A DNA stretch of 64,000 nucleotides from a virus: the IMG/VR virus record IMGVR_UViG_3300032241_002679, positions 32,001 through 96,000 of that record; one strand, written 5' to 3'. The notes under the pieces are model-generated. The model was given only the letters and a program-made list of their open reading frames with translations. It was not told the DNA's origin and searched no databases. Each line of letters opens with the position of its first letter. The stretch's first letter is position 1. Of the stretch, positions 7,156 through 14,800 are shown piece after piece. The translations under genes were made by a program, and so were the position numbers.

Positions 7156-7778
7156 TGAAACTTTACAATTTATTTGAAGAACTTATATTAGAAGCAAAAC
7201 TTTTAAATGAAAGTGTGTCTGATGATGATGTTATTAAGGCACTTGAGGGAAAATATTTTGTAAAAATTACTTATGATGAATCAGAAAGTGGTAATAACGT
7301 TAGTAATAGAACTATAGGTGTATATAATCTGGGTCATACTAAGGCTGGGAATAGAGCCATAAGAGTTTTTCAAATTGGCGGTGATTCTAAAACAACTGTA
7401 GAAGGTGCGTGGAAAACACTGAGACTAGATAGAATAATGTCTTGGCGACCAACTAAGATGAAATTTTATAAACCAGCATCCGATTATAGTAATACCATAC
7501 CAATGTATAACGAAAATCCAAGTGGACAAGAAAAAGAAACTAGTCCAATGGGTCCTCCAAATGGTCATGTTGATAGATTTGTTAAATTTGATAGAGTTAA
7601 ATATCCTAAGACTCAACAGTCATATACTAGTAAAACAGGTGCTTCTAGAGAATTAACAGATAAAGAAAGAGAAGAATTATATAATACTAAAAGACCAACT
7701 TTGGTACCAACCAATAAGCCTAAATATGAAAAAAGAAAGCCTATTGATACAAGTGCCACAACTGGTCCTAAAAAATAA
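7155..7778 (+). CDS. WYL-like domain protein
   Basis: VKITYD...NRTIGVYNLG...IRVFQ...WKTLRLDRIMSW matches the WYL RxFRLDRI signature. Confidence 0.65.
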   Translation: MKLYNLFEELILEAKLLNESVSDDDVIKALEGKYFVKITYDESESGNNVSNRTIGVYNLGHTKAGNRAIRVFQIGGDSKTTVEGAWKTLRLDRIMSWRPTKMKFYKPASDYSNTIPMYNENPSGQEKETSPMGPPNGHVDRFVKFDRVKYPKTQQSYTSKTGASRELTDKEREELYNTKRPTLVPTNKPKYEKRKPIDTSATTGPKK

Positions 7779-7790
7779 AAAAAAATAAAT

Positions 7791-8360
7791 ATGGAAATAC
7801 CACAACCAGTAGATGTAAATAGACTAAAAGCAATTTTGGGCGCATCTAAAAAAATAATGAATAAAGTTGAGACTGGCGATTTTGAAACTGGACACATTGA
7901 TGCAAGAGCTTTAACAGAAGAAGGTGTTGCTGAATTAAAAGCAGAGGGTGTTACAAGACCAAAATCACAAATGAATCATGTAGGTTATACCGCTGAGAGT
8001 GTAAAAAATTCTAAACTACCAGAAGCTATAAAAAAAGTTATGCTTGAAAACCCAATACCACAAATGGTTAATCCAAATCATACATTTACAATAGATGATG
8101 TTTCTGAATTAGCAGATAAACCAATGGGATTACCAAGAATTCCAAAAACATCTAAAAAACAAATAGTCGAATCGTATAATTCTAATTCAAATTATATTAC
8201 GGTTAGTAAAGAAGAATTAAATGAAATGGTTAGCGATATGGTTAATGAAAAATTATTAGAATTTTTTGTGCAAAATCATAACAAAAGAATTACTGAAGAC
8301 GCAGTTAAAAAAACAATTAACATGCTAATTAAAGAAGGTAAACTTAAAAAAACTGTTTAA
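7791..8360 (+). CDS. Hypothetical phage protein
   Basis: 189-aa ORF followed by a terminator. Confidence 0.75.
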   Translation: MEIPQPVDVNRLKAILGASKKIMNKVETGDFETGHIDARALTEEGVAELKAEGVTRPKSQMNHVGYTAESVKNSKLPEAIKKVMLENPIPQMVNPNHTFTIDDVSELADKPMGLPRIPKTSKKQIVESYNSNSNYITVSKEELNEMVSDMVNEKLLEFFVQNHNKRITEDAVKKTINMLIKEGKLKKTV

Positions 8361-8386
8361 TTTTTTTTAAAAATATTTTAAAAATT

Positions 8387-8409
8387 GGGGCTTATAAAAG
8401 CCCCCTTTT
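8387..8409 (+). terminator. Intrinsic terminator
   Basis: GGGGCTT-ataa-AAGCCCC followed by cTTTT. Confidence 0.75.
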
Positions 8410-8458
8410 ATTTACATTAATATTTTAATTATTATATTAATTTTATAATTTTTATTTA

Positions 8459-9376
8459 ATGGGGAATAAAATTATTTTAGATGATAAATTGATTCAACTA
8501 ATTAAAGACCAATATATTTCTGGAATTGGCTCAACAATAATTAGTAAAAACTTAAATATCCCAAAACATACAATTTTAAAAATATTAAATAAATTAAAAA
8601 TAATAAGGAATAGACGTATATCTAAAGAATTTTATTCTAATTTTTGGGAAGAAGAAAACATGTGGTGTGGTAATTATGTATGTAAATCCTGCAACGAAAA
8701 AATAAAATTTTGTGTTAATGAAAAATCGTTATTAAATAGAAATTTAAAAAGAAAAAACATTTGTAAAAAATGTTCATTAAAAAAACAAATCGGTAGCAGT
8801 AATTCATTTTATGGAAAAAAACATATGGAAAAAACCAAAAAACAAATATCAAATAAAAAAATTGGTATTTGTACAAGTAACCATAGTAAAAAGCCTGAAT
8901 ATAGGAAACTATATAGCAAGTTGGCAAAAGAAAGGTGGGCTAGCGGTAAAATGGAATCAACCAGAATCAAATTAAGTAACTTGATGAAATCAAGGATAAT
9001 GAATGGTAAATTAAAGGGTTATATTAGATCTAAAGCCGAACTTAAAATAGTTGATGAAATTCAAAATCTAGGAATAATCGTTATAGAAAATTTTAAAATA
9101 AAAACAAAAGTATTTGATATCTATATACCAAAATTTAATTTACTGATAGAATACAATGGAGATTATTGGCATTGTAACCCTAAAAAATATAGTCCTAATT
9201 ATTTTAATAGTAAAAAAAATAAAACAGCGGAAGAAATTTGGAACTATGATAAGAATAAACTTGACTTAGCAAAAAAGTATAATTATACTTGCGAAACAAT
9301 TTGGGAATCGGATTATAAAAAAGATCCCGAAATAATAAAAAATATAATAAAAAAATATGACACAAAACATGATTAA
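8459..9376 (+). mobile_element. Free-standing Vsr-like (DUF559/EDxHD-type) homing endonuclease with a NUMOD3-like DNA-binding repeat
   Basis: SKAELKI...FDIYIPKFNLLIEYNGDYWH...KLDLAKKYNYTCETIWESD nuclease motif; NSFYGKKHMEKTKKQIS is NUMOD3-like; CxxC pairs. Confidence 0.8.
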
Positions 9377-11759
9377 TCTCACCCCAGTTCGTCAAAAAAT
9401 TAAGCTATTAGTGGTAGCTAGTGACAGAACTGGGGTGAGCTGACTAAGCTTTTTTAGATCAACAAAACCACATATTCATTTAGAAAAAAATTATCCTGAT
9501 GAATTTCAAATTGATATAGATTATGAACCACATTTGGATAATGATGAATGGTTAAAACAATATGATATTATTCACTATCACAGAACACTGGGTCCGTATG
9601 AACAAATGGAAAGTTTAATTAAAAGATTAGATAATTTAGGTATTGTTAGTATTATGGATTTGGATGATTATTGGTCACCTGGCCCTCATCACCCAGCTTA
9701 TCTCTTAATAAAGAACACTGGTTTAGACAAAATGATATTAAACAATATTAAACTTGCAAAAAATGTAACTACTACTACAAAAATTTTTGCTGAAGAAATT
9801 GCTAAACATAATAAAAATGTATTTGTATTGCCAAATGCAATTGATCCAACCGAAAAACAATTTACATATAATCCAGAAAAAAATGACCGAATTAGAATTG
9901 GTTGGTTAGGTGGTAGTTGTATGACACCAGATACAGAAATATTGACAAATGAAGGGTGGAAACGATTTGATAAGCTAAATCAAACCGAAGAAGTAGCGAC
10001 ACTAAACCCAGAAACAAATGAAATTGAATACAATAAACCAACTGGCTATATTTGTGAACCATTTGATGGACAATTAAATTGTGCTAAAAACGAGTTAGTT
10101 GAGTACGAAGTAACACCAAACCATAACATGTATGTATCAGAAGCTAAAAATCTAACACATAAAAAATTAGATTTACGGTTGATACAATCCGAAAAAATAC
10201 ATGGCAAAAATTTTCATGTTAAGATAGATGGTATTTGGAAAGGCGAAGAAATGAAATACTTTGTTTTACCAAAATTAAATTTTGAGACTGAGCAAGAAGA
10301 ATCATATATTGATTCTTTAATAGCTAAGAAATATAAACCAACTAATTATTTAGTTGATAAATATGGTTCGGATCTACATTTAGATATGGATAAATGGTTA
10401 AAGTTTTTTGGTTTTTGGATGGCTGAAGGGTGGACTAGTAAATCAAGAGGTTTATATCAAGTTGGTGTTGCACAAACTAAGGATAATAATTATTTATCTG
10501 AAATGTTTGATACTTTAACAGAATTAGGGTTTAACCCAAAATACACCAAAGATAAAAAACAACTTAGAGTTTTTGATAAACAACTATGGGATTATTTATC
10601 TTATTTTGGCCAAGCGTTTGAAAAATTTATACCCAACGATATTTTATCATTATCTAGTCGTCAATTGGAAATATTTTTAGAGTGGTTCATAAAAGGTGAC
10701 GGAACGGTAGAATCTAATAAATACCAAAGAAAAAGAGCCTTTACTAGTTCTAAAAAATTAGCGGATAATTTACAAGAATTAGCGTTAAAAATTGGTATAA
10801 CAGCCACTATAACAAATAGGGGAAAAAGAACATCCAGTATTAAAGGAAGACCGATTATAAATCAATACGATAGTCTTCAAATTAATTTTGGAAAAAAACC
10901 AAGTATTAGTAAACACAATAAATCAACACCATTAGTAAAATCTTCAGAACAATATAATAGATATTATAAAGGTAATGTATATTGTGTTGAGGTTCAGAAT
11001 CATATTATTTATGTTAGAAGAAACGGTAAAGCAATGTGGGTTGGTAATAGTCACCTTAAAGATCTAGAAGTTTTAAAAGGCGTAGCTGGTAGAGTAGCTA
11101 GTGAAGGATTATTGGATAAAATACAATTTGTTGTATGTGGTTTTGACCTAAGAGGAACCATGACAATAATTGATGAAAAGACAGGAGAACAAAAACAAAG
11201 ACCAATTCTACCACGTGAAAGTGTATGGTTTGAGTATGAGAAAATATTCACTGATGATTATAATATAGTTAGTCCTGAATATAAAGAATTTTTATTGAAA
11301 TTTAAAAATGAGGAGTATCCAAATTTAATGAATGAACCGTATAGAAGAGTATGGACAAAACCAATAAGTACATATGCCACTAATTACAATTTGTTTGATA
11401 TATCATTAGCACCAATTGAAGAAAACATATTTAATAGAGTTAAAAGTCAGCTTAAAGTTATTGAATCTGGATTTCATAAAAAAGCATTAATAGCACAGGA
11501 ATATGGTCCTTATCAAATAGATATTAAGAATGCGTATCAATTTGGTGGTGGTTGGGATGAAAATGGAAATGGAATTTTAATAAATAGCAATAAAAACCAT
11601 AAAGATTGGTCTAAATTTATTATTAAACTAATTAAACAGCCAGAATTAATTAAACAATTGGGCGAAAATTTATATAATACGGTAAAAAATACATATTCAT
11701 TAGATAAGGTTACTGAAGACCGAAGAAATTTATATCATAAACTAATAGGCAATAAATAA
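9357..11759 (+). CDS. GT-B type glycosyltransferase with an in-frame TGA at 9441-9443 (putative recoding) and an intein
   Basis: From ATG 9357 or 9369: ...KIKLLVVASDRTGVS*LSFFRSTKPH..., in frame with track ORF 9534-11759. MDLDDYW, LPNAID, RIGWLGGS/SHLKDL and KSQLKVIESG are glycosyltransferase motifs. Confidence 0.8.
9378..9450 (+). other. Putative translational bypass element: long stem-loop ending at AGC-TGA-CTA-AGC
   Basis: ctcaccccagttc (9378-9390) is the exact reverse complement of gaactggggtgag (9427-9439). Matched AGC codons at 9438 and 9447 flank TGA at 9441. Confidence 0.6.
9918..11048 (+). mobile_element. Intein (377 aa) with a LAGLIDADG-type endonuclease, in the glycosyltransferase
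   Basis: GGS|CMTPDTEILTNEGWK...VTPNHNM...FGFWMAEG...FLEWFIKGDG...VYCVEVQNH...WVGN|SHLKD. Confidence 0.9.
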
Positions 11760-11771
11760 TTTATTTTTTAG

Positions 11772-11802
11772 TTGCAGATTCAGGATTTTTTATGTAAGTT
11801 TG
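11772..11802 (+). promoter_or_regulatory. Bacteroidota-type promoter (TTG-N20-TAAGTTTG)
   Basis: ttg at 11772-11774 and TAAGTTTG at 11795-11802, upstream of ATG 11817. Confidence 0.5.
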
Positions 11803-11816
11803 TTAAAAAATATATT

Positions 11817-12398
11817 ATGTCCTTAAAATCTGAACAAATAGTTAAAAATACTAAGAAGTATTTTCAAACAGCTACTGATAATGGGTTTATGAATGAAGAT
11901 CTCATCAAATTTTTGGGTGAGGACTTTATTAAAGCACCCGCATCTACAATGAAAAATCTTCATAATGCTTTTGAAGGTGGTTTAGTTGATTACTTGTTAA
12001 ACGTAACAAAATTTGCTATTAATTTTAACAATTCATTACCCGAAGAAATGAGGGTTGATCAAAAATCTCTTATTAAAGTATGTTTTTTACATCAAATAGG
12101 AAAGGCTAAAATGTATAAGCCTTGTACATCAGAATGGCATATTGAAAAACAGGGTAAGATGTATGAATTTAATGAAAATTCTGTGTCAATGCGTGTCAGC
12201 GAACGTTCAATTTATTATGCGACTCAGCATGGTATACAATTTACTGATGAAGAATATTCAGCGATTTTAAACTTTGATAAAGTTGATGATAAAATGGCCG
12301 AATACCACAATACAATGCTTGGGGATTTATTAAAAACAGCTTCATTATTCACAATTAAACATTTAAAACAAAAATATAATGAAAACCAATCTAGATAA
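11817..12398 (+). CDS. HD-domain (YhaM-like) protein with a degenerate motif
   Basis: APAS...HNAFEGGLVDY...FLHQIGK; ATG 11817 preferred over TTG 11772. Confidence 0.65.
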   Translation: MSLKSEQIVKNTKKYFQTATDNGFMNEDLIKFLGEDFIKAPASTMKNLHNAFEGGLVDYLLNVTKFAINFNNSLPEEMRVDQKSLIKVCFLHQIGKAKMYKPCTSEWHIEKQGKMYEFNENSVSMRVSERSIYYATQHGIQFTDEEYSAILNFDKVDDKMAEYHNTMLGDLLKTASLFTIKHLKQKYNENQSR

Positions 12399-12948
12399 AA
12401 TGAGGGAAAAGATTTTTAAATTAATTGATTCTAATAGTAATTATAGTATTGAAGATTTTAATGCTGAATTTGCCCAAGTTAATCATGTTGAAAATTATAA
12501 AATTGCTTTAAATTTTGAGAATAAATCAAATAATCCAAATCCAGAGTATGCAACTGCTGGTTCTTCTGGATTTGATTTAAGAGCAAATCTTGAAAAAGAT
12601 GTCTGGATAGGTAAGGGTAAAAGAGAAATTATACCAACAGGATTATATTTTGAAATACCTGAAAATTTTGAAATACAAATACGTCCTAGAAGTGGTTTAG
12701 CTGCAAAAAATGGTATAACAGTACTAAACACGCCTGGGACAATTGATGCTGATTACAGGGGTGAAATAAAAATAATCCTTATTAATCATGGTGAAATACC
12801 ATTTTGTGTTAAACATGGTGATAGAATTGCACAAGCTGTGTTTGCATCTGTCATTGGCGAGAATGTTGTTAATTTGTCACAAGTAGATAAAATTTCAGAT
12901 AATACACAGCGTTCGTCTGGCGGCTTTGGTAGTACAGGTTTACATTAA
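12379..12948 (+). CDS. dut: dUTPase (trimeric type)
   Basis: SSGFDLRA, RPRSGLA, PGTIDADYRGEI, GDRIAQ and RSSGGFGSTG motifs. Confidence 0.95.
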   Translation: MKTNLDKMREKIFKLIDSNSNYSIEDFNAEFAQVNHVENYKIALNFENKSNNPNPEYATAGSSGFDLRANLEKDVWIGKGKREIIPTGLYFEIPENFEIQIRPRSGLAAKNGITVLNTPGTIDADYRGEIKIILINHGEIPFCVKHGDRIAQAVFASVIGENVVNLSQVDKISDNTQRSSGGFGSTGLH

Positions 12949-12961
12949 TTTAAATTAATTT

Positions 12962-13729
12962 ATGAAATTAGATTTTAACGATTTATTAATTGTTCCACAA
13001 AAAATCACTTCAATAACCTCTAGATCAATGGTTAATCCATTTGCTAAAGATTATCTTCCATTAATGACTGCTCCAATGGATACTGTTATTGATAATAATA
13101 ATAGTGATGTATTTTTTAAAAACAAAATTAGAGTTTGTTTTCCCAGAGGAATTTATGCTGAAAGAGGGTTTAAGTCTTTTTCTATCTCAGAAATGGCTGA
13201 ATTAGTTCAACAAAATAATATAAAGCCTGATAACAGTTACTTAATTGATATAGCAAATGGTCATATGAAAAATGTTTTAGAATTGGTTAAAACAATAAAA
13301 GAAAAATATCCTAATTTAAAGTTAATGGTCGGCAACATTGCTAATCCTGAAACATTTGCTTTATTATCTGATGCTGGTGCTAATTATATTAGAGTTGGTA
13401 TAGGCAATGGCGGAGGATGCATTTTAGAAAATTCTATTGTTTCAACTAAGTCGGGGGATAAACCAATTCAAAATGTCGAAATAGGCGATTATGTTTTAAC
13501 CCACACTGGTGAATATAAAGAAGTAATTAGCACAATTGCATATCCCAGTCGTGAAGAACTTATAAAAATTAACAACACGATATCAACTAAAACACACGAA
13601 TTTTATGTATTAAATAAGATTTATAAAGATTTAGTTGACGATGATAATATTCATAATTATGCTGAATGGATTAAAGCCGAAAATCTAACTAACGAATTTT
13701 TTTTATTGGAATATGATGAGAATGATTAA
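12962..13729 (+). CDS. IMPDH/GMP reductase N-terminal half fused to the split-intein N part (IntN 13418-13726)
   Basis: PLMTAPMDTV, IDIANGH, MVGNIA, IRVGIGNGGG|CILENSIVSTKSGDKPIQNVEIGDYVLTH...TKTHEF. Confidence 0.9.
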   Translation: MKLDFNDLLIVPQKITSITSRSMVNPFAKDYLPLMTAPMDTVIDNNNSDVFFKNKIRVCFPRGIYAERGFKSFSISEMAELVQQNNIKPDNSYLIDIANGHMKNVLELVKTIKEKYPNLKLMVGNIANPETFALLSDAGANYIRVGIGNGGGCILENSIVSTKSGDKPIQNVEIGDYVLTHTGEYKEVISTIAYPSREELIKINNTISTKTHEFYVLNKIYKDLVDDDNIHNYAEWIKAENLTNEFFLLEYDEND

Positions 13730-13753: not shown

Positions 13754-14800
13754 ATGATAAAACCCATTATGTTGAAGAAACTTTTTAATAAAAAAAATAT
13801 TTGTCTAGAATGCCAGGAATTTTTTAATAAAGATACCGACAATAAAAATTTTTTATCTTTTACTAGTCATTTAAAAACACACCATGGTATGTCTAATGAG
13901 GAATATTATCGTAAATATTATCTAAAAAATAGTGAGGGTCTTTGCGCTTGCGGATGCGGTAATAAAACCACATTTCATAAAGGTAAATATTTAAAGTATT
14001 TTTCTGACCATAAAAATTATATTACTCAGACAGATTTAACACTCTTAAAAATTAAAAAATCTAAAGAAAAATATAATAAAATTTCTAGTTTATTAAAAAA
14101 AACAGGTATAACATTTGATGAATTAAAAAAAACATATGATGAATTTATTAATTTAGAAAAACCAATTAGTGTTTTATCGAAAGATTTATCAATTGATTTT
14201 AGAACATTAAAGGATTATTGGTTAAAAGTTGGTTTAATTGAAAATAAAGAAATTTTTAAACGGACATGCTTAAAATCTCAAACTAAATGGCTAAATAAAC
14301 CATTGGTTCCAAATGATAATATTGTTGAAAATTTACGGTCTAAATTATTTTTAATTAAAGAACTTTTAAATAGGTCGGATAAAGTAACTTTTAACCAAAT
14401 AATTACTGTTATAGATTTAAAACTTAATAAAAATTATCTTGGTTGGTTTCTAAAGGAAAATCTGACATCTACAGAGTTAAAAAAGGTTAAATTCATTAAA
14501 CACAGTCAAATTGAAATTGATTTTCTTAATTTATTAAAATTTTATTTCGATAAATCGGTTTTAGGTTCTTTTGAGCTTGATGGTAAAATTTTTGATTACA
14601 AATTGGGTAAAAATATTTTAATTGAATTAGATGGCGAATATTGGCATTCATCCGATGAAACTAAAATCAATGATAAATTAAAAAATGAAATAGCTAAGTC
14701 TAATGGATTTACTCTAATTAGAGTTAATGATAAACATGTTAAATCATTAGATTTTTTAAATAATTTAAAAAATATATATGAAAAAATTAAAAAAATATAA
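13754..14800 (+). mobile_element. Free-standing Vsr-like homing endonuclease between the split-intein halves
   Basis: SQIEIDF...FDYKLGKNILIELDGEYWH...DKLKNEIAKSNGFTLIRV; N-terminal C2H2-like and CACGCG zinc motifs. The start may be ATG 13769. Confidence 0.85.

Follow-up and report, generated by a model that had tools for sequence, protein, structure and literature searches.

How could a phage glycosyltransferase gene remain functional when a stop codon cuts its reading frame after 28 codons? The question is raised by a locus in the 64,000-nucleotide (nt) stretch of viral DNA analysed here (the window), which covers bases 32001–96000 of the IMG/VR virus record IMGVR_UViG_3300032241_002679. In it, the gene of a free-standing homing endonuclease (8459–9376; all features lie on the + strand) runs into a glycosyltransferase (GT) frame that is interrupted by a single TGA, with a GC-rich stem-loop just before the break. 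Comparison with related loci identifies this arrangement as a real, recurrent and selected feature. We consider it likely that a homing-endonuclease cassette has brought programmed bypassing into the gene, by which ribosomes would cross the break in a short hop. With good though somewhat lower confidence, we propose a family of selected 5–10 nt stop hops into any frame, powered mainly by a hairpin re-forming behind the ribosome.

A glycosyltransferase frame interrupted after 28 codons

The GT frame opens at ATG 9357, with a second ATG at 9369, within the last 20 nt of the endonuclease open reading frame (ORF). From ATG 9357 it reads ...KIKLLVVASDRTGVS, a stop and then LSFFRSTKPH, the only in-frame TGA occupying 9441–9443. 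Four elements can be distinguished. The first exon (9357–9440), which we regard as a replacement 5′ exon, overlaps the endonuclease ORF by 20 nt and comprises 28 codons up to and including a serine codon, AGC (9438–9440), the putative take-off codon. The gap TGACTA (9441–9446), made up of the stop and CTA, would be left untranslated. It is followed by the candidate landing codon, AGC (9447–9449), 9 nt past the take-off codon, and by a second exon (9450–11759) that translates into 769 codons and a stop. The window has 9 extra bases, and dropping 9441–9449 gives DRTGVSFFRS, the sequence of the canonical relatives L027, L028 and L034.

The first-pass annotation, made from the letters of the window alone, had placed the GT start at 9357 or 9369 inside the endonuclease 3′ end, followed by a stop, and had pointed to AGC TGA CTA AGC at 9438–9449 as Ser codons around that stop. 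Both descriptions hold at every position, and its statement that the rest of the gene, intein included, is intact agrees with the 769 open codons after landing. It also described a mini-hairpin, AGCU-GACUA-AGCU, which is present in the window because of the AGCT palindrome but is not conserved and is missing from Gly-type relatives.

The gene was assigned through its intein-less relative L015, which as query matched the glycosyltransferase family phrog_7162 at 9e-41. Within exon 2 of the window gene lies a LAGLIDADG intein of 377 residues (9918–11048; LAGLIDADG_3 match at 3e-10). Its junctions, marked here by a slash, are GGS/C...VGN/SH, with a C-terminal Gly-Asn instead of the usual His-Asn.

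Gene callers shorten the window GT to 741 residues. The contig comes from just one metagenome-assembled virus record, and a mistake in sequencing or assembly, or a nonsense mutation private to it, could explain the break. However, an identical endonuclease protein occurs on at least three contigs from two samples, each time followed by the same truncated 741-residue call, which implies the same upstream stop there and provides an indirect check on the assembly. The architecture is moreover common to 44 distinct alleles from many independent samples, and an error or private mutation seems to us scarcely credible.

Uninterrupted relatives and a series of interrupted alleles

Searched at the protein level, viral contigs yielded 80 related loci (56–80% identity), of which 65 are canonical, that is, uninterrupted, and 15 interrupted. 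DNA-pattern scans of viral and metagenome collections widened the interrupted set to 44 distinct cassettes; the allele counts given here ignore kinship among these 44 sequences. The 65 canonical loci read M..K[VI]LVVPSDRTGV[SG][YF][YF]RS with invariant spacing, and the gap is missing from every one of them. The same uninterrupted reading is found in a 35%-identical homologue from a 735-kb phage, and the length of the loop at the break is constant over 47 distinct canonical alleles. The first-pass annotation had suggested looking for extra residues in homologues; canonical alleles have none at the break, and a simple nonsense mutation is not supported.

All 15 interrupted loci are broken at one codon, which is the same in all 44 distinct alleles. 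Throughout the 44, the take-off codon is AGC, AGT, GGT or GGC and a stop follows immediately 3′ of it (TGA in 32, TAA in 10, TAG in 2). The distance from take-off to landing is +5 in three alleles, +6 in nine, +7 in 13, +8 in 17, +9 in one (the window) and +10 in one, and 34 alleles need a change of frame. Gaps in the relatives measure 2–7 nt, always with the stop first and 0–4 further bases behind it. The landing codon is AGC, AGT, AGA, GGC, GGT or GGA, and then come, in frame, [YFHKS][FY]RS and the rest of the gene. In every allele with complete DNA the exon 2 ORF is intact, at 391–407 residues or, with an intein, 763–787, even where the endonuclease has a frameshift or truncation, survives as a 43-residue remnant or has disappeared. 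The larger, intein-sized form occurs in about half of the interrupted relatives and the smaller in the other half or so.

Exon 1 is similarly well preserved. It is 27–29 codons long in the 44 cassettes, and the window aligns codon for codon with the 43 others. Its Ser is encoded by AGT in 24 alleles, AGC in 12, TCA in three, TCT in three and TCG in two; its Arg by AGR in 25 and CGN in 19; and its Leu by TTR in 27 and CTN in 17. Residues that are kept across such switches of codon family argue that exon 1 is translated and under selection as protein.

Pairing of take-off and landing codons

Base 2 is identical between the take-off and landing codons in all 44 alleles. Bases 1 and 2 both agree in 35 pairs, the remaining nine showing an A/G difference at base 1, and third-base differences are mostly C/U. 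The first bases of the two codons are associated (Fisher p = 5e-5, uncorrected for phylogeny). A Ser take-off codon is combined with a GGC landing codon eight times and a Gly take-off codon with AGC once; U-G wobble at anticodon position 36 would allow the Ser-to-GGC landing. None of the 44 alleles uses TCN as landing codon, a codon family that 17 of the 47 canonical alleles have at that position, and in three alleles the landing codon is AGA, which specifies Arg, at a position that otherwise always has Ser or Gly. These patterns fit a landing codon that is paired with the peptidyl-tRNA and never decoded. Of the matched codons stressed by the first-pass annotation, pairing with the same tRNA is upheld, whereas identity of the codons is not needed.

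Were the gap decoded instead, this would take readthrough at +6 and +9, a +1 frameshift at +7 and +10, and a −1 or +2 frameshift at +5 and +8, and would add one to three residues after strand β-1. By our own reading of the gaps, no allele has a stop in the frame that would be needed, and a stop in the A site with structure nearby is a classic combination of frameshift stimulators. Yet with 34 of the 44 alleles needing a frame change, readthrough is no general answer, and since the +5 to +10 series covers all three frame relations, one mechanism must serve all three. Decoding would place three mechanisms on one conserved hairpin and have them interconvert, with +6, +7, +8 and +9 occurring inside one Ser-type group. 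There is no slippery sequence, and tRNA-Ser(GCU) would be unable to re-pair at +1 or −1 on AGC-UGA. Extra residues would lengthen the loop that is invariant in the canonical alleles and the 35%-identical homologue, and landing on AGA would put Arg at a Ser or Gly position. TGA, finally, is a regular stop that terminates 42 of the 172 long ORFs of the contig, which has no tRNA genes, suppressor type included. We regard decoding of the gap as unlikely.

Recoding of TGA or an alternative genetic code was also considered for the contig as a whole and rejected on stop usage, ORF statistics, the absence of contig tRNAs and the frame changes across the alleles. The GT is the sole clean single-TGA merge in the contig, and translating TGA as sense restores none of the other genes.

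A covarying stem-loop that ends at the take-off codon

The 5′ stem-loop of the window spans 9378–9439, in a region of about 26% GC. Helix 1 (9378–9390 with 9427–9439) is a perfect 13-bp helix whose 3′ arm ends inside the take-off codon; helix 2 pairs GTCA with TGAC (9391–9394 with 9422–9425), and a third, apical helix of 7 bp closes the structure (9403–9409 with 9413–9419). The GC-rich 13-bp stem and its gtca/tgac extension had been noticed in the first-pass annotation, and the apical helix is present besides. A 111-nt RNA fold reached −35.9 kcal/mol, compared with −18.1 ± 3.1 for shuffled sequences (z −5.8), and none of 200 shuffles was as good.

The stem-loop belongs to the interrupted alleles. 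In the protein-based set, the 5′ arm occurs in 15 of 15 interrupted and 0 of 65 canonical loci, and it sits within an N-terminal extension of 11 codons (..TPVGRK..) missing from canonical genes. A DNA pattern that would have accepted an uninterrupted allele with hairpin arms retrieved none. Over the 66 nt up to the take-off codon, the minimum free energy is −31.1 ± 2.3 kcal/mol in the 44 cassettes and −6.7 ± 2.9 in 48 canonical sequences. That the arm should accompany the insert and that the stem should covary had both been predicted; both are seen, the arm in every case.

In alignment A1 of the 44 sequences, 90.8% of cells are paired. Shuffling the columns gives 85.6%, with none of 500 shuffles reaching the observed value, and sliding the partner by 1–3 columns lowers pairing to 32–52%. 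Compensatory changes occur at six pairs of the stem. Pair 24–84, which involves a Val wobble base, takes all four Watson–Crick types (CG 20, UA 10, GC 9, AU 4). The 3′ arm of the stem stops at the first base of the take-off codon, and this base covaries with its partner (UA 20, CG 11, UG 4). The presence of G-U pairs in the stem indicates that the structure is formed by RNA of the sense strand. Codon choice follows suit: Gly is GGG and Asp is GAC in all 44 cassettes, whereas in canonical alleles GGT or GGA is favoured for Gly, and GAT and GAC are equally common for Asp. Four core C-G pairs (A1 columns 26–29 with 79–82; window 9382–9385 with 9432–9435) are invariant in the 44, although flanking pairs covary freely and alternative Gly codons are available, which suggests a constraint beyond pairing, on stability or on another interaction of GGGG.

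Could the hairpin serve the endonuclease transcript, in its stability, processing or termination, and the interrupted GT be dead or dying? Homing endonucleases are able to damage non-essential genes, and the hairpin begins one base past the endonuclease stop codon. A dead gene would not, however, be expected to keep an ORF of 391–787 codons after the gap in every complete allele despite 28% GC, even where the endonuclease is decayed or deleted, nor an exon 1 under protein-level selection. The hairpin itself is kept in the cassettes of L015, L048, L060, L079, L090 and L102, beside which the endonuclease is absent, and its stem always ends at the take-off codon, with whose first base it covaries. 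As for termination, an intrinsic terminator was rejected, as the terminator scan made no call and no conserved T-run follows the stem across the family. Taken together, a dead gene with a hairpin for the endonuclease transcript appears very unlikely.

The cassette as a replacement 5′ exon

What moves with the stop can be judged from closely related pairs of alleles. The interrupted allele L003 equals the canonical L012 up to ...GTA AGC TAC TT, then carries about 1 kb of endonuclease and replacement exon, and resumes at AGC TAC TTC. The canonical L014 and the interrupted L015 are about 97% identical outside a patch of about 140 nt, which brings in a new start codon and the arm-bearing extension, changes the codons of the N-terminal residues, and also includes the stop with its gap and the landing codon. 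An orphaned original GT 5′ end lies upstream of the cassette in 12 of the 44 alleles, the break falling each time about 8 nt inside the S/G-Y/F codons. These orphan ends (L003 1930–1990, L004 1940–2000 and ten other loci) are found some 0.7–1.1 kb upstream of the gap; they run from the start codon to ..SDRTGV[SG][YF] and about 2 nt more, followed by a short out-of-frame tail, and would encode about 25–30 residues if translated. The window has no orphaned GT 5′ end, and no second SDRTG-coding stretch lies upstream. Its endonuclease ATG falls approximately at the canonical GT start position in an alignment with the canonical L008, 98 nt past the upstream gene.

On a quick maximum-likelihood tree of the N-extein, the interrupted alleles are scattered: 16 rows take 14 changes, the same as the mean after shuffling, and well-supported branches force at least four of them. 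Near-identical canonical and interrupted pairs are present. According to these comparisons, the cassette enters at a single, fixed position, its right-hand junction being the gap, and is mobile with or without its endonuclease gene. The first-pass annotation had envisaged a mobile 9-nt insert. The stop and gap do travel with the endonuclease, but the real unit is the replacement 5′ exon of about 140 nt.

L003-type cassettes are flanked by an orphan exon on one side and the remainder of the GT on the other. This arrangement might suggest that a tiny or degenerate intron, or editing, takes the gap out of the RNA or, where an orphan is present, the entire cassette. Against removal, no Rfam intron or other RNA family was found at E ≤ 1 in window positions 7500–12000 or in four orphan-bearing loci, and an orphan exon that could supply the 5′ splice partner is missing from the window and from many relatives. 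As we read it, the 8-nt repeat at the L003 junctions is incompatible with splicing in which U is the last base of the 5′ exon and G that of the intron. A gap of 2–7 nt is too small for an intron structure, and exon 1 is conserved as coding sequence. We consider removal at the RNA level highly improbable.

I-Bth0305I cuts immediately beside its insertion site (Taylor et al. 2011, PMC3239194), and this makes the cassette junction a candidate target and the gap a candidate means of protection. It is reasonable to suppose that the junction is presumably the endonuclease target and that the gap shields its carrier from cleavage. At the DNA level, canonical alleles would then be cut and converted, and alleles with the stop and gap spared.

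A Vsr-like homing endonuclease

The endonuclease gene (8459–9376) encodes 305 residues, with an N-terminal helix-turn-helix/NUMOD3 DNA-binding part and a C-terminal Vsr-like nuclease domain of the EDxHD family. NUMOD3 matches residues 1–184 at 20.7 bits, against a cut-off of 20.4, MTES_1575 matches weakly, and the protein also matches PHROG homing/HNH endonuclease families. Among its 388 homologues, several bear the name Vsr at JGI and most have a precomputed PF07460 assignment. A sequence search of the PDB with the endonuclease gave nothing useful. An AlphaFold model was obtained with a pLDDT of 80, and the best Foldseek match of its C-terminal domain is the catalytic domain of I-Bth0305I (3r3p; probability 1.00, TM 0.78 by target, 23% identity), the next being E. 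coli Vsr (1cw0/1vsr). The E-values, just 4e-3 to 2e-2, reflect the use of the whole three-domain model as query. Residues E231, D235, H238 and D264, candidates by sequence for the composite catalytic motif (E, D, x, H, D), are invariant over 22 homologues; the set lies in an IEYNGDYWH block that is also found in the window's second nuclease. From its modelled fold and NUMOD architecture, the protein can be assigned to the Vsr-like (EDxHD) homing-endonuclease family, in line with the Vsr-like label given to it at first pass.

By tblastn, the endonuclease gene stands directly upstream of the GT in interrupted loci only. Several copies are decaying: the L004 group carries a frameshift (L004/L005/L006 2066–2928), L067 retains a 43-residue remnant (2789–2917), further decayed copies lie in L021 (843–1346) and L053 (2231–2902), and in several loci the N-terminus is shortened, to 168–255 residues. 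Endonuclease decay beside an intact bypass cassette and GT reads as a snapshot of the homing-endonuclease life cycle.

A proposed hop powered from behind

We propose that the ribosome starts at ATG 9357, decodes 28 codons through the hairpin region and would pause with peptidyl-tRNA-Ser on AGC 9438–9440 and UGA in the A site. In place of termination, the peptidyl-tRNA would release the mRNA, the mRNA would shift 9 nt through the ribosome, and the same tRNA would re-pair at AGC 9447–9449. Decoding would restart at UUU 9450 and give the canonical ...DRTGVS-FFRS... protein, from which the intein would then be spliced. The 5′ stem-loop is the likely driver. At take-off, the 3′ arm of helix 1 would occupy the E site and the mRNA exit channel, with helices 2 and 3 outside as a nucleus, and each base of forward movement would zip more of the CCCC/GGGG helix behind the ribosome. 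Pairing of exiting mRNA has been put forward as the driver of forward movement in gene 60 bypass (Wills et al., bioRxiv 10.1101/2024.12.09.627546). Under a model that assumes 12 nt 5′ of the P site to be shielded by the ribosome, the gain from zipping is −3.6 to −16 kcal/mol across alleles and −13.3 kcal/mol for that of the window. The comparisons lend strong support to what the first-pass annotation had proposed at its core, a minimal bypass with matched codons, an adjacent stop, a stem behind the ribosome and a link to an endonuclease.

Several points weigh against this interpretation. Nine of the 44 codon pairs differ at the first base and three land on AGA, which means that strict codon matching is not required. 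Such matching as there is could be partly inherited, the cassette bringing its own landing codon by co-conversion, as in the change from TCG in L014 to AGT in L015 at the landing position. The 44 alleles are phylogenetically dependent counts. The driving role of the hairpin hangs on the assumed ribosome footprint of 12 nt, and the four G-C pairs that never covary may mean that GGGG has another role. We infer the hop and its efficiency, and selection on both exons is indirect evidence for a joined GT protein.

Genomic context

The 141,843-bp contig has 28% GC and an estimated completeness of about 40%, which would make its source a jumbo phage. Upstream of the cassette, a terminator scan marks a terminator-like hairpin (8387–8404) of the preceding gene (7791–8360), and the left edge of the cassette comes next. 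Over 113 gene starts of the contig, no Shine-Dalgarno enrichment was found before start codons (GGAG 2%, background 1%), from which it follows that the host of the phage probably initiates translation without Shine-Dalgarno pairing. A prfB-like Shine-Dalgarno role for the GGGGU(GA) beside the take-off codon finds no support in the same count.

Downstream of the GT operon, a dUTPase-like ORF of 189 residues (12379–12948; labelled by eye) precedes a fractured IMPDH/GMP-reductase-like gene. The N-terminal piece of the latter (12962–13729) closes with the N half of a split intein. A second Vsr-like endonuclease of 348 residues follows (13754–14800), with an IE.DGEYWH block in common with the GT-side enzyme, and the C-terminal piece, from 14778, opens with the intein C half (..IVHN/C). 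This combination of split intein and Vsr-like nuclease is the layout described for IMPDH (Dassa et al. 2009, PMC2677866).

A contig-wide scan for a codon, a stop and a matching codon after an inverted repeat gave 56 hits, compared with 20–34 in shuffles. No further convincing hop site was found in the 142-kb contig; the arms are AT-rich in all hits but the GT site.

Discussion

The closest functional parallel is T4 gene 60 with its MobA endonuclease. As there, one protein would be made from two ORFs, the stop comes right after the take-off codon, the landing codon can pair with the same peptidyl-tRNA, the nascent chain would still be within the ribosome at take-off, and an mRNA stem-loop lies 5′ of take-off. 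Both arrangements travel with a free-standing homing endonuclease and outlast its loss or replacement. They differ in that the GT hop would be 5–10 nt, not 50, over a gap too short to accommodate a take-off stem-loop or Shine-Dalgarno-like landing aid, and in that the host gene is a GT, broken at codon 28, for which the cassette supplies a whole replacement 5′ exon. A survey of gene 60 cassettes described topoisomerase genes alone, gaps of about 50 nt, VSR-like nucleases beside some cassettes and a 5′ stem-loop that is not conserved (Manning & Atkins, bioRxiv 10.1101/2022.08.31.505936); in the GT cassettes, unlike gene 60 clades, the 5′ stem-loop is conserved and covarying. The same survey gives partial precedent, in metagenomes, for a pairing of bypass element and Vsr-like nuclease that the first-pass annotation had taken to be undescribed. 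A full-text literature search found no description of this GT cassette. Membership in the T4 gene 60/MobA family (about 50-nt gap, GAG, topoisomerase large subunit, HNH MobA) was rejected, given the 6-nt gap, the GT host gene and the Vsr-like fold, and no sequence relationship is possible. The GT cassette works like the gene 60 family without being a homologous member of it.

Short hops have precedents outside that family. E. coli test constructs attributed to Weiss et al. in 1987, O'Connor et al. in 1989 and Kane et al. in 1992 reportedly gave low-level, unprogrammed or synthetic short hops. There, as proposed here, a peptidyl-tRNA moved to a matching codon 5–6 nt or two codons on, over a stop or slow codon; the GT site, in contrast, belongs to a natural gene, where selection preserves it along with its own RNA structure. 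The terminase of the Streptomyces phage phiHau3 is a candidate for bypass of 10-nt UUA-initiated inserts, with part experimental support over frameshifting (Antonov et al. 2023, PMC10732093). It shares with the GT cassette a short gap in a phage gene, which is essential in phiHau3, a nearby landing codon and a 5′ stem-loop, in phiHau3 a proposed stimulator. Unlike the GT cassette, phiHau3 involves a rare sense codon as trigger in place of a stop, acting as a regulatory sensor, and no endonuclease cassette; its examples are few and an internal Shine-Dalgarno is invoked, whereas the GT cassettes form an allelic series in all frames, in phage genes without Shine-Dalgarno motifs. The byp elements of Magnusiomyces capitatus mitochondria resemble the GT gaps in being numerous, mobile insertions into coding sequence that contain stops and that ribosomes bypass independently of a Shine-Dalgarno, but they are mitochondrial, 27–55 nt long, structured inside the gap and without a link to an endonuclease (PMC10732093).

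The endonuclease itself has much in common with EDxHD homing endonucleases, namely its fold, its combination of NUMOD modules with a Vsr-like catalytic domain and its free-standing gene inside a conserved phage gene. Around known members the host gene is rescued by intron splicing or by trans-splicing of split inteins, whereas rescue of the GT would be translational. Where gaps were hundreds of bases long, Dassa et al. (2009, PMC2677866) did consider bypass, but only as an improbable alternative.

Efficient programmed bypassing has so far comprised T4 gene 60 and its homologues, the yeast mitochondrial byps and one Streptomyces phage candidate. If our interpretation is true, the GT cassettes would be an independent bypass family, with dozens of natural variants in hop length, frame, stop and codon pair around one covarying hairpin. 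Such variants would amount to an existing collection of mutants with which to ask what drives sliding, how far a hairpin can push, how much anticodon pairing is required and how a landing site is chosen. There is a warning for annotation too: stop-interrupted or frameshifted phage genes beside endonuclease genes may be intact, as the truncated GT call illustrates. For homing endonucleases, the cassette would represent a third route, besides introns and inteins, by which to invade a conserved gene without killing it, with a replacement 5′ exon joined to the remaining gene by translation.

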